DNA of 62,381 bases, the filler included, from Bonamia ostreae (Eukaryota): the NCBI GenBank assembly GCA_040357525.1. It is 21 parts of 21 records of this genome, joined end to end, with 100 filler letters (N's around TTAATTAATTAA, not from the genome) between each part and the next. Parts side by side here need not be neighbours in the genome. Positions count along the whole stretch, not along the records: positions 14,987 to 17,874 come from JBDODL010000655.1; 20 more parts are not named here. The stretch is one strand, 5' to 3'. A program made the position numbers and the translations under genes. The notes under the pieces were generated by a model. The model did not search any database. It was not told the origin of the DNA and saw nothing but the letters and a program-made list of their open reading frames with translations. Every line of letters begins with the position of its first letter. Positions within the stretch are counted from its first letter, which is position 1. Positions 14,987-58,360 of the stretch are shown piece by piece.

Positions 14987-15135
14987 TCTGAAAATTCGAT
15001 GGTTTGTTGGTACTTTTTGATGTTCTCTGACACTTTTGAAATGGCCTCGATTCTTTCTGTTTTCGAATTTTCGGCCAAAAGTTTGATCAACGGTTTCAGA
15101 TTTATTTCTCTTGTTTTTTGGATTTTCGACGCCAT
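14987..15135 (-). CDS. N-terminus of a protein, possibly RRP1/NOP52-like
   Basis: MASKIQK...LIKLLAENSKTERIEAISKVSENI; only weak resemblance; cut by the contig edge. Confidence 0.35.
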
Positions 15136-15306
15136 TTTTAAATTTAAGCCTAAATCGGTGATTTTACAAGTTATATATATATAATTACGAACGATAAGAA
15201 TTTTTGAGCTTATAAATATATGTGAAAAATTACGAAATGCCGAAAAGCAGTTTTTTATCAAAATAAAATGCGTCAATAAGAAGATGTAGAATTTGTAGGT
15301 TCGGAA

Positions 15307-16037
15307 ATGGCGTACTACAAAAATCGCTTCGAAGAACTAGACCGAATCGGCGACTTGCCCACAGAAACGTTTAACAAGAGATTCAACAAGTTATTTCAAC
15401 AAAACGAAAATAGCTCCAAGTCCATCGGTAACACGGATATCTTCAGAAATGTCAAAATCTATGTGAACGGATATTGCCAACCGCCTCAATCAGAGATCCA
15501 CAGAATGGTCAAAACGCATGGTGGAAACATATCCTTTTATTATTCGAGAAAAGTAACGCATGTCGTCTCGCAGAACTTTGGAACACGCCTTAAAAAATTC
15601 CGTTCGTCGGTAATAGTGAAGCCATCTTGGATCACAGAAAGTGTCAAAAACAATCGCAAATTGCCAATTTGCGAATTCACTTTTTTGCCAAAAACGAATA
15701 TTTTGAGTTATTTTAAATCGGTAAAATCGCCGCGTAATTGCGAAAAGCGCGTTTTAGGCAAATTGAGTAAAAAGAGCGTAGAAAGCAAAAACAACGTTGA
15801 AAACAAAAATTTTGTAAATTTTGGAGAAATCAAAGATTTTCTTTTTCGGCAAAAAAATTTGAATTCCATTTTGTTTTTTATTCGAAAAATTTGAAAAATC
15901 TCAATTTTAAATCTCAATTTTAAAGAAAAGCGTTAGAACACTTTAAAACAGACAAAAAGGCGATATCCGATTTTAAAGAGTTTCTACAGATTTGCAATGA
16001 AAATGACTTATTGGATCAAATCAACTCTCAATTTTAA
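15307..16037 (+). CDS. REV1: Short REV1-like protein: BRCT domain plus putative Rev1 C-terminal domain, no polymerase domain
   Basis: IFRNVKIYVNGYCQP...THGG...YYSRKVTHVV...VKPSWITESVK is the REV1-type BRCT; intron 15873-15925 extends the frame to TAA 16035-16037 (about 225 aa). Confidence 0.7.
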
Positions 16038-16210
16038 TGTGCGCATAAATTTATTACAAAAATTTTCCATTTTATATTGTTTCGAAAACAAAAAATTTTG
16101 CAAACAATTTTCTAATGGATAAAATCCATAAACGACAAATCTTCGAAAGCGAATAAACATTTTTTTAAATTTCAGCACAAAAAAATGATCAAAAAATTTG
16201 TTAAAAGAAT

Positions 16211-16626
16211 TTAAAGTAGCGATCCGGATTTTTTCACACTTTCCAGAAACTCGGTCGAATTGATTTGATCGTCGTAATTATAAAACGGATCCATTTGCAT
16301 TTTAACGAACGCGGCGTAAATTTGGTCGAAGAACGCTGATATTTTGCGCTCTGTGAGTCGATTCTTGTTGTACATTAACATAAAGCGGTGATTCGATGCT
16401 GTGACAAAACAGGAAATGGCGTTTTTGTCAAAAGTGTCGATTTCCTTGAGATCCATTTCATCGGTCGATGTAGATTTGAGATCGACTAAATCTAAAGTGG
16501 AGTGTAACAGAAATTGCGTTATCCCCTCGACCTTTGACTAAATTTTAAAGGAACTTTAAAAGACGGGTCTTTAAAATCGTGTTCAAATAACAAGAGGTCA
16601 TCTTTCGAGACTACACATAAATACAT
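16211..16626 (-). CDS. TRAPPC2: TRAPP complex subunit 2 (sedlin/Trs20)
   Basis: MYLCVVSKDDLLLFE...QFLLHSTLDLVD...LKEIDTF...SCFVTASNHRFML...MDPFY; requires a 17-nt intron at 16538-16554. Confidence 0.9.
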
Positions 16627-17070
16627 TTCAGATTTATTAAAAATTTTGCTAATTAACAATATTTAGACAACAAGGTATAAACGAGTAAAATTTTTCGAAT
16701 AAGGCGAAAAAGGCAGTAATAAATTTTATTTTTAATGCAAAATTTTTTCTTGTTTTGTAAAATTTCAATGTGCGTCATTTTGGCTCCAATTTTTGCTAAA
16801 AATTTGAAAGGGACCGTAATTCAAGTGTTCCAATTTTGTATCCAAATTAATAAATGGATTATAAAGTCTTGAGAGCCCATTTTAAAGAGATGAAAGAAAA
16901 ACATTAAAATCTTTTTGTTTTTAGGTTGTAATTTTATTCTGAAAAATCAAAACTGGCAGAATCTTAAATAAACTGAAATATGAACATTATATACATAACT
17001 TCAAAAATTAAATAAGAACGTTGTCTCTATCGATATTTCATAATTTTACTCCAAAATCGATTGAAATACA

Positions 17071-17874
17071 ATGATTGCGATATTGTTTTTAGTGCTGCTC
17101 AAATACAATTGCAACTACACTAATCAATTGATTGTATATCCATCACAGAATGCCAATTTTCAAAGAGCGGAGAGAAGTAATCCCAATACTATAAAGATTG
17201 TTCTTGAGTTTCTTATTGATCGTTGCGCATTAAGTCCAGGAGAAAATATACAAGATCTTAAATACGAAATAATAAGTTTAGTTGATCAAGTTAATAATGT
17301 CATTCAACCTCTCTTCAATGTGTATCTTGAATTGGTTTTCCCTTACAATGGATTAATCAGCATTGTTAATGACTGCCGGGTTCTAGTTAATTCGAAATGC
17401 GTTTACGAATTCATGAAAAATTATAAAACAAATATTTATGTAGACTTGGTTGGGTTGACGTATATATACGTCCCTTTTTCGTATCAGTTGAATTACCTTG
17501 AACATAAAAATGTCTGTACAAGCAAAGCAATAGGAGTTTTGCAAAGAACTATCTACGCAGACAGTCTTGCGAGATCAGTTTTTTTTTCATTAATAAAGAT
17601 TTATGGAAATTTGGGAGCAAAATTTCCAAATGATATGGATAACGTATATCATCAAAAACAAAACATCCAAGATATACACTGTTTCTTGACTACTTTAAGA
17701 GCGGCATCACCCTATGTGAGTAGATCTTGTTTCTATATTGATAGCGTGAATAAAAATAATGAAAAGATTCCGATGATACTATATTCAACAAATCAGGACG
17801 TTTTTACTTTGTGCTACCAGTATTTAGTCCAAGTTATGTATCAAGAGTTATTCGTTCCTCGATGTGTACCCGGA
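17071..17874 (+). CDS. Secreted protein, probable degenerate reprolysin/M12B-like domain, partial
   Basis: Hydrophobic N-terminus; IVLEFLID...LVDQVNNVIQP..VYLELV...VGLTY...VCTSKAIGV...GNLGA in ADAM-like order, without HExxH. Confidence 0.5.
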
Positions 17875-52496: not shown

Positions 52497-53520
52497 ATGC
52501 GACGAGTTAAAGACTGCGTTAGAACACACAGTGTTTTAGATCACAAAGGATGTAGTGGTAACTAAATTGCTAAATTTTAATTAAGGGCGTGTAACTATAA
52601 TTGGCGGATCTCCCGTTTACACAGGGTTCCAATCTTTAATAATAACAATGTAGCGCGCCATATTTTGCGGGAATGGCGGCTTTAAGAATGGTTGCAAATT
52701 AGTTTAATTATTGCAGGGGGCAGATTTAGTGAAAATAATTTGCCACGGAGACGCGGCCATTCCAATAAAATCCTATTCGCCTGAATTAATGGTCGAGCCC
52801 ATTTTAAGCGAACAGTTTAAAAACTGCAAAACTAAAATTTCATTTTTAAGATAAAATTAAAAAGCGCTATAAAAAATCAATTTTGAATCGAAAACACAAA
52901 TTTACAAAATTTACAAAAAAATCGATTTAAAAAACGACAAATTTTTATAAAAATCGAAAATATTATAAAAAATGTCCAAATTCGCTTTAATTATCGGAAA
53001 ATTGAAAAATTAAAAAAGCGCTAAAAAAGAAGATTTTCACGATAGTCTTAAAAATCAGCATTGCGTTGTCGTCGGGCCAGTTAAATTTTACGAAAATTTT
53101 AAAGGGATTGGGAAGAAACCAGAATATACAAAAATTGTGTTGTCAATTGATCCGCCATTGTTGTGACGATCTTAAAATTCCGGTTGTTGTAGACGGGGTT
53201 TTTATTGATATCGAAAAAGGACGGGATATATCTTCTCGAAGATTTGAATAAAAACAAACCAAAAAATACAAATTTTTTGGTTTTGACGCCCAATAAAAGA
53301 GAACAAGATTTTTTGGAGACTGTATTTGGCGAAAAGTTTTTTTGTTTTGCTAATTTTACGCAAAAACAACAAATTCAAAAATGACTAATTTTTCCTTTTA
53401 ATCGATAACATTCAAAAACGACAAATCTTCAAAATCGAATTTAAATATTTAGACCAAAAATTTAAATTTTCAAAAAAGTGAAAAATTTGACACTGACGAA
53501 TTGGAAATGTCCAAAATCGT
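52497..53520 (+). CDS. NAXD: ATP-dependent NAD(P)HX dehydratase, partial (largely missed by the ORF track)
   Basis: After removing introns 52558-52585, 52626-52653 and 52691-52716: [35 protein letters not shown]...IKSYSPELMV; later VVGPGLGR, VVDGDG, LTPNKRE. Confidence 0.9.
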
Positions 53521-56769: not shown

Positions 56770-58360
56770 TTATTCAAGTTTGCTGGGATCCAACAGAATA
56801 TTCGCATTCGAAGGCAAATAAGAAACGTTTGGCGCTTTCGCCAAATTTTCCGTCACTTGTTTTGCCGTCTCTATTTTCCGCAACTTCAAATTTTTGATAT
56901 TAAAAAATAAAACTTTTATTAGTCCATTTCCGCTTTTTTGAAGAGCGTTCGAAATCAGTTTCGCCGCCTCCGATTCTCCTTCCGATTTTATAACAGCGGC
57001 TGCTTTTTCGTGCTCGCTTTTTATCACCATAAATTTGGCCCTCTCCGCGTCTTGTTCTGCTATTTGCTTCTGCTCTATCGCTTTTGAGAATTCCGGGGAG
57101 AAAGAGAGATGTGTCTGAGATGATTTTTTAGAACAAATGAGATTTCGAAAATTTATAAAATCATTTCAATAAAAGTTGAAGATGGTGAAATCGAATGGGT
57201 CAAATTTAGCTTTAAAAACGATAGAAATGTCATCGAGGACAATGTTGAACTGTCCTGCTCTGACAGTCAAAGTTTCGTTGATTTGTTTCGATATTTTTTC
57301 TCGCATTGTTATTAATTCGTCGGCGTTATATTGCGCCTATTTTGAAAAGCGAAAAAATAATTAAAATGGCACAAATATGTTAAAAATGGCTAAGAACAAC
57401 AAAAAACATTAAAAATGGGTTAAAATGGTGAAAAAATAACAAAAAACAAAAAAAAGACATTAAATAATCAAAAACAACAAAAAATGTTGGAAAATAGTAA
57501 AAAACAACATTAAAAATGGCGAAAATTAGCAAAAAAATAGTGAAAAAAAAGATATTAAAAATGGCGGAAAATAATAAAAAACGACATCAAAAATGGCGAA
57601 AATTAGCAAAAAATAGTGAAAAAAAAGATATTAAAAATGGCGAAAAAATAACAAAAAAAAACAAAAAAAAGACATTAAAAATGGCGGAAAATAGTAAAAA
57701 AACGACATTAAAAATGGCGAAAATTAGCAAAAAATAGTGAAAAAAAGATATTAAAAATGGTGAAAAAAATAACAAAAAAACAAAAAAAAGACATTAAAAA
57801 TAACAAAAAATGCCGAAAAATAGTAAAAAATAGTGAAAAAAGACATTAAAAAAAAGCAAAAACACAAAATAAAAACAACAATACTCTTCAAAACTTCATT
57901 TCCAATCGAAGGCAAAACTCTCTCTTCAAACGACTTTCCCAAATTTCTGTAAATAATTGGAATTTTGGTTTCTCTCGGATGAGATAAAATTCTCAGCGAA
58001 ATATTGACTTGTTGCAAGTCCTTCGTCCCCGTGATTGAAGTTATCGTCCTTGGCCGTGTCCTCACTTCGAACAAAATCGCTTTCTTACCATTTACAAAAT
58101 TGTAAAACATCAAAATAGTAAAATATCTTTTAAAAACTTGCACGAACGGAATGAGGAAATGAGTTCCTTCTCCGTAACTCTTATCGAGGATCCCTGAAAA
58201 ACGGGAATAAATAATGCCGCGGTGACCAGCTTTGACTATTATTCTCAAAATTTGGCAAACCGTCAAAAATGAAATTTTGAGCCAGAAAAGCTGCAGACCC
58301 GAATCCAAGAATGACAGATGGAAAGCCTTTTGCCATTTTAAGAAATTGATTTGCGTTCAT
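56770..58360 (-). CDS. PHB1: Prohibitin (PHB1-like)
   Basis: [66 protein letters not shown]. Confidence 0.92.
57360..57870. repeat. Composite low-complexity tandem repeats filling a prohibitin intron of about 540 nt
   Basis: Recurrent ATTAAAAATGGCG(A/G)AAA and ATTAGCAAAAAATAGTGAAAAAAAGAT units. Confidence 0.85.

Follow-up and report, generated by a model that had tools for sequence, protein, structure and literature searches.

In REV1, catalysis, BRCT function and CTD scaffolding have been separated in research by engineered alleles. The BRCT domain docks on PCNA and on 5′-phosphorylated primer–template junctions. In yeast, an Arg and a Leu of the N-digit are responsible for choosing dCTP and for evicting the template G. 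The Rev1 CTD, a bundle of four helices, is the element behind Rev1 scaffolding: it binds Rev7/Pol zeta and Y-family polymerases. Full-length REV1 thus described comprises a BRCT domain, an N-digit, an IMS core, a UBM and a REV1_C domain. A gene of the oyster parasite Bonamia ostreae encodes a protein that shares with it the BRCT and a diverged form of the N-terminal helix motif, but that is without the SRLH N-digit, IMS, IMS_C, UBM and REV1_C. In the long REV1 relatives examined the IMS core follows the BRCT on one chain (18 of 18), whereas the Bonamia chain stops 99 residues past its BRCT. The protein, a REV1 homologue whose architecture has been cut down radically, is already public under an enzyme name. 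We lean mildly towards a genuine, probably expressed REV1 descendant in which only a diverged helix motif and the BRCT are kept, joined by a linker to a lineage-specific helical tail, and which would work as a BRCT adaptor.

The window, that is, the whole stretch of DNA analysed, is 62,381 bases long with a G+C content of about 30%. It is made of 21 pieces of about 2.9 kb each, joined by 20 artificial linkers (N44-TTAATTAATTAA-N44, with stops in six frames). As the linkers join separate contigs, the order of genes across them carries no meaning. The BRCT gene occupies 15307..16037, with its stop at 16037, as a sequence-only reading of this DNA had placed it; the identity of the predicted spliced product to a public protein record (P0001) confirms this. 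The same reading had the gene boxed in by a divergent start codon (ATG 15135) and by the stop codon of TRAPPC2 (16211), and both coordinates are correct. The divergent ORF starts 171 nt upstream of the BRCT gene and the TRAPPC2 stop lies 173 nt downstream of it. The coordinates of the features are collected in Table 1.

Table 1. Features of the contig that carries the BRCT gene (positions are those of the window)
Feature	Coordinates	Strand	Details
Host contig of the BRCT gene	14987-17874		2,888 nt; N44-TTAATTAATTAA-N44 linkers on both sides; gene wholly inside
Divergent neighbour, first exon	14990..15135	-	ATG 15135; continues past contig edge; no family matched
Exon 1	15307..15389	+	Start codon; N-terminal helix motif, P0001 residues 1-22 = 15307-15372
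Intron 1	15390..15413	+	24 nt, GTTATT...AATAG; in frame, stop-free; X1 contig omits the same 24 nt
Exon 2	15414..15872	+	BRCT residues 35-118 = 15433-15684; disordered linker 15685-15813; tail helices 1-2
Intron 2 (predicted)	15873..15925	+	53 nt, GTTTTTTA...TTTTAAAG; GTTTTT..TAAAG
Exon 3	15926..16037	+	TAA 16035-16037; last two tail helices
Tail helical unit	15820-16031	+	P0001 residues 164-216; four short predicted helices
TRAPPC2/sedlin gene, convergent	16211..16626	-	Pfam Sedlin_N, E 1.9e-18
ORF, same strand, 268 codons	17071-17874	+	Leaves contig end; best Pfam match PTase_Orf2, E 0.017, under cut-off

Read without splicing, the frame that opens at ATG 15307 is closed by a TGA (15892-15894) after 195 aa. 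A second short frame, open from 15924, closes with the TAA at 16035-16037; it encodes ...AISDFKEFLQICNENDLLDQINSQF. When all GT..AG pairs are enumerated, the first possible acceptor (AG 15924-15925) joins in frame solely with the donor at 15873. The joined exons 15307-15389, 15414-15872 and 15926-16037 give a translation identical to P0001 (217 aa), the public record 'deoxycytidyl transferase [Bonamia ostreae]', which is seen on one 2,888-nt contig. The signals of intron 2 are plausible, since an intron of a prohibitin-like gene in the window uses the identical GTTTTT donor. Against the 3′ part of the model (intron 2 and exon 3) stands that the read contigs listed gave it no support; the chance expectation of a 37-codon open frame is about 0.046 at this composition.

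Evidence from reads comes from one public run kept as contigs (X1), the type of which, 'RNA?', is a guess. A 422-nt X1 contig covers 15363-15808 minus exactly 24 nt at 15390. Among the pieces listed, shorter ones extend to 15865, and others cover TRAPPC2 (16263-16526) and the upstream neighbour (14987-15129). The intergenic stretch 15181-15277 has no X1 cover. Together with the contig that omits the 24 nt, this pattern fits spliced RNA and suggests that intron 1 is genuine; an allelic in-frame indel is the alternative. X1 cover is also absent at 15278-15362, 15957-16053 (exon 3) and 16539-17874, and the junction 15872>15926 is not among the X1 joints listed. These latter gaps are not informative, because parts required in mRNAs are equally uncovered among the pieces listed: the 5′ coding sequence of the BRCT gene and, by bin depths, the 3′ coding sequence of TRAPPC2.

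The BRCT of this gene is clearly derived from REV1 and is closest to REV1 among the BRCT families, in agreement with the sequence-only reading. The Pfam BRCT model (PF00533) matches ORF residues 43-112 (E about 2.5e-13 to 3e-13); the score, 50.2-50.5 bits, exceeds the cut-off of 21.3. Searching all PDB sequences with phmmer gave 16 distinct matches at E ≤ 1. REV1 entries fill the first five places (E 3.3e-16 to 1.8e-14): human 2ebw (3.3e-16), yeast 2m2i, 4id3 and 5umv (about 5e-15), and 8tlq_B (1.8e-14), full-length yeast Rev1, in which query residues 22-121 align to chain residues 150-252. The sixth match, TopBP1 (E 0.0036), is separated from the REV1 entries by a gap of 11 orders. Identity between the Bonamia domain and these REV1 BRCT domains (2ebw from human; 4id3, 5umv, 2m2i and 8tlq chain B 150-252 from yeast) is 36-38%. 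The structural comparison agrees: AlphaFold2 models the BRCT at residues 35-118 with a pLDDT of about 96, and the best Foldseek matches of the model are Rev1 BRCT domains (5umv and 4id3, TMt 0.90 and rmsd 1.0-1.2 Å; 2ebw, TMt 0.81), with TMt spanning 0.81-0.90 and rmsd 1.0-2.2 Å across the REV1 BRCT structures.

Searches of larger protein collections led to the same family. Over 1.84 billion representatives, phmmer returned 849 matches at E ≤ 0.001, 64 of them at E ≤ 1e-10; among the 150 matches listed of the 849, none besides P0001 itself exceeds 45% identity. All of the long matches scanned with Pfam (18 of 18) are REV1 proteins with BRCT and IMS, most of them with IMS_C as well and several with UBM or REV1_C. 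A profile search that used a 42-sequence alignment found 52 proteins, and 50 of the 52 carry PF00817. The exceptions are P0001 and P0002, an unnamed fragment of 257 aa that visibly enters the start of the polymerase core. These are also the two proteins at E ≤ 0.001 among the 47 candidates of a word-indexed search; a 'longer' word search found none among 373 candidates.

Conservation within the domain is high. Of the 21 BRCT columns that are at least 80% conserved across 41 relatives, Bonamia keeps 15, and the changes in the other six are all conservative (T>C, L>I, I>V, A>S, L>F and K>R). Ahead of the domain, the 41 relatives have in common an N-terminal helix motif, YMxxKxxKLxxQF, and a related motif likewise precedes the Bonamia BRCT. 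The Bonamia copy has diverged: it retains Y3, L11 and F22, carries the changes M4>Y, K7>R and K10>E, and has seven residues inserted. At the K10 position, 39 of 40 relatives have K, and Bonamia has E. We infer that this helix is the M1 motif of PMC12871630, of which Bonamia would then hold a copy with K10>E and the 7-residue insertion. The damage to the N-terminal motif (K10>E and the insertion) fits decay and function equally.

Beyond these parts, no REV1 domain was detected in the gene or on its contig. At E ≤ 10, the Pfam matches of P0001 are four BRCT models and two sub-threshold families, with no IMS, IMS_C, UBM or REV1_C. The IMS core (PF00817, PF11799) has no match at E ≤ 10 in P0001, and no core was found in six frames of the contig or the window. 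UBM (PF14377) has no match at E ≤ 10 in P0001, and 8 of the 18 relatives scanned have one. In REV1, the motif of the N-digit, [FY][FYW]..S[RK][LIM]H, sits immediately ahead of the core; it is absent from P0001 and present in 105 of the 150 proteins of the set (P0001 counted). HMMs built from the matches were also run, with all filters off, on the complete six-frame translation of the window (1,405 pieces). The core HMM (78 sequences) found no core (best E 1.9), and the best E values were 0.2 for the CTD HMM (76 REV1 C-termini) and 0.53 for the N-digit HMM (99 sequences). Apart from the BRCT gene, neither its contig nor any of the 20 further pieces showed anything REV1-like. The sequence-only reading had held that the gene has no deoxycytidyl-transferase domain and no room for a Y-family core. 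Both points stand: by Pfam and the HMMs the product ends well ahead of any such domain, and there is no such core on the contig.

The absences limit what the protein can do. Because the N-digit and the polymerase core are gone from the gene, P0001 cannot insert dCMP; as no CTD is detectable by sequence, P0001 would also be unable to bridge Pol zeta and inserter polymerases in the manner of the Rev1 CTD. The name 'deoxycytidyl transferase' is unjustified by sequence, since the N-digit SRLH, IMS, IMS_C, UBM and REV1_C are all missing. It is also misleading: a pathway reconstruction counting P0001 as a translesion polymerase would overstate the DNA repair capacity of the oyster parasite.

We propose that this descendant of REV1 has probably kept only the N-terminal module, a diverged helix motif with a well-conserved BRCT, and that N-digit, polymerase core, UBMs and CTD would have gone from this gene. 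After a probably disordered linker of about 45 residues there would follow some 53 residues of lineage-specific sequence, predicted as four short helices, for which no relatives were detectable. The remaining protein may be a BRCT adaptor that docks where the REV1 BRCT docks. By analogy with that domain, its likeliest role would be docking at PCNA or at 5′-phosphorylated junctions, and the new helical tail may provide a different partner surface. We infer both the functionality of P0001 and its binding targets; that the gene is in use is argued from three points, namely that its BRCT is conserved, that its frame is intact and that its transcript is probably spliced. The scaffold-only REV1 of the earlier reading survives in part: REV1 descent and the lack of a catalytic domain hold (Pfam, HMMs), but the scaffold half is not supported, as no CTD is detectable by sequence, the fold searches gave no support for one, and UBMs are absent.

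A stronger form of this proposal is possible, if rather doubtful: a natural separation of function, in which Bonamia has wholly discarded the polymerase, the UBMs and the CTD and has kept helix and BRCT as an independent protein of 217 aa whose four-helix tail is newly evolved. The claim is bounded by the very fragmented assembly and by the matches listed, among which no orthologue exceeds 45% identity. If true, the N-terminal module of REV1 would have a role on which selection can act, independent of both dCMP insertion and CTD scaffolding. A natural protein of helix and BRCT would then show which part stays useful as a parasite strips damage tolerance, and would provide a minimal setting in which to look for the binding targets of the REV1 BRCT.

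A split REV1, with the BRCT module here and the N-digit, core, UBMs and CTD in a separate gene elsewhere, the two jointly doing the job of REV1, is in our view unlikely. To our knowledge there is no precedent for a split REV1. The well-conserved BRCT would suit a pathway still in operation, but none of the source-named proteins among the 52 profile matches is a Bonamia core-only protein, in what was a word-limited search, and the core, the CTD and the N-digit were not found in the 62-kb window. A second gene may be missed, as a published B. ostreae assembly described in PMC11069148 (12.24 Mb in 9,705 scaffolds, N50 1,417 bp) recovers 65.9% of 126 conserved genes; absence from so fragmented an assembly proves little. 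Against a split, the same source reports that DNA repair genes are over-represented among the gene losses of B. ostreae: in its supplement sheet 'B.ostr. losses', DNA repair accounts for 23 of 328 lost groups versus 224 of 12517 (FDR 2.7e-6). This context favours loss. REV1, deoxycytidyl, REV3, REV7 and MAD2L2 have zero occurrences in four supplement files of PMC11069148, and we found no paper in the literature that mentions both Bonamia and REV1.

We regard it as similarly improbable that the gene is a decaying relic, that is, a REV1 that has lost its 3′ two thirds and is still transcribed without having a function. The damaged N-terminal motif, the disordered linker and the tail without relatives would all suit such a relic, as would a lineage that sheds DNA repair genes (PMC11069148). 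The BRCT argues otherwise, with 15 of 21 conserved columns kept and only conservative changes in the other six. The reading frame is likewise intact over 217 codons, although about 8% of random codons are stops in this AT-rich DNA. Apart from the 24 nt, the sole difference in the 422-nt X1 contig from the same locus, G>T at 15705 (L125F by frame reading), falls in the linker and not in the BRCT.

An artefact, either a mis-joined contig or a 3′ mis-annotation of what is truly a full-length REV1, seems to us quite improbable. The contigs are merely about 2.9 kb long, introns of about 540 nt occur in this genome (prohibitin gene), and the stretch 15866-16262, A/T-rich with a short tandem TCTCAATTTTAAA repeat, is unbridged by independent X1 contigs; each of these would leave room for such an error. 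Yet the unspliced frame of exon 2 meets the TGA at 15892, 27 nt beyond the last base in the X1 pieces listed. The sole downstream ORF on the same strand (17071-17874) has no Pfam family above cut-off and no similarity to IMS or to the REV1 core. Furthermore, the spacings of 171 and 173 nt to the neighbouring genes agree with the median of 218 bp reported in PMC11069148.

The C-terminal tail was analysed both within the full AlphaFold2 model and on its own. Residues 119-161, the linker, are predicted to be disordered, with pLDDT <50 over most of their length. Residues 164-216 form four short predicted helices (164-173, 177-185, 191-203 and 207-216) with block-mean pLDDT values of 72-87, in a model whose input alignment has no relatives over the tail region. 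The last 60 residues folded alone gave the same four helices (mean pLDDT 77.8). The sequence-only reading saw in the tail a likeness to the Rev1 CTD, and both are indeed small, all-helical and C-terminal. There is, however, no sequence signal between them. REV1_C (PF16727) has no match at E ≤ 10 in the protein or in the tail; the CTD HMM gives the tail 0.1 bits, a score equalled or exceeded by 165 of 1000 shuffled tails; hhalign of tail against CTD gives P 0.14; and no Rev1 CTD is among the nine phmmer matches of the tail in the PDB at E ≤ 10. The tail helical unit has 53 residues versus 91 positions in the Pfam REV1_C model, roughly half the size.

Fold searches with the tail gave generic helical-repeat matches. 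Foldseek against the PDB returned 0 matches at E ≤ 0.001 and no Rev1 among 16 matches. In an exhaustive structural search (VIA), the best matches (Z 6.9) were alpha-solenoid pieces from IFT-A, the clathrin leg, AND-1/Ctf4 and Integrator, a level within noise for helical models, and no Rev1 CTD was among the 50 matches listed. The ESM Atlas gave no usable match for the tail. The CTD identity of the tail is thus not supported, the sequence tests being negative and nothing from the fold searches speaking in its favour. That the protein is a mini-REV1 reduced to a scaffold, with a Rev1 CTD as its tail to bind Rev7/Pol zeta and Y-family polymerases, is very unlikely indeed, even though the tail is predicted as a small four-helix bundle like the CTD fold and a remote likeness would be compatible with the fold searches.

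Other identities for the tail were considered. BLASTP and phmmer alignments extend up to NKNFV, and the tail (NKNFVN...) was tried as a vestige of the N-digit (..NF[LIV]..FY..SRLHH in the relatives). This candidate was rejected: an HMM of 99 such regions gave 2.4 bits, which 67 of 1000 shuffles reached or exceeded, and hhalign gave P 0.16. Pfam NPR2 (nitrogen permease regulator 2, C-terminal end) matches residues 102-209 (15634-16010) with E 5.4e-4 and 19.3 bits versus a cut-off of 27.5, and the tail alone with E 0.051 and 12.8 bits; the match is sub-threshold and falls in K/N/F-rich sequence. The best phmmer match of the tail in the PDB, an engineered I-CreI-type protein (E 0.0064), was put down to chance, as no stretch passes alone.

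Several minor features of the window were recorded. The TRAPPC2 frame shifts, by eye, between the first coding stretch (ATG 16626; minus strand, 16537-16626) and the remainder. A 17-nt GT..AG segment at 16538-16554 (GTTCCT..ATTTAG) would restore the frame; this points either to an intron of extremely small size or to an error of 1 nt in the assembly. Over the first exon of the divergent neighbour, an X1 contig has an extra T after 15113 (depth 2792), which would be an assembly frameshift error or a strain difference in that gene. The prohibitin-like gene (~57300-57880, minus strand) has an intron of about 540 nt with T-rich tandem repeats, donor GTTTTT and acceptor AATAG, placed after ...NEVLKSIV. 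Finally, a 42-nt element at 16113-16154, in the 3′ intergenic region of the BRCT gene, has a second copy at 53399-53440 on another contig with 86% identity; several X1 contigs with differing flanks terminate on this element, which is a short dispersed repeat.
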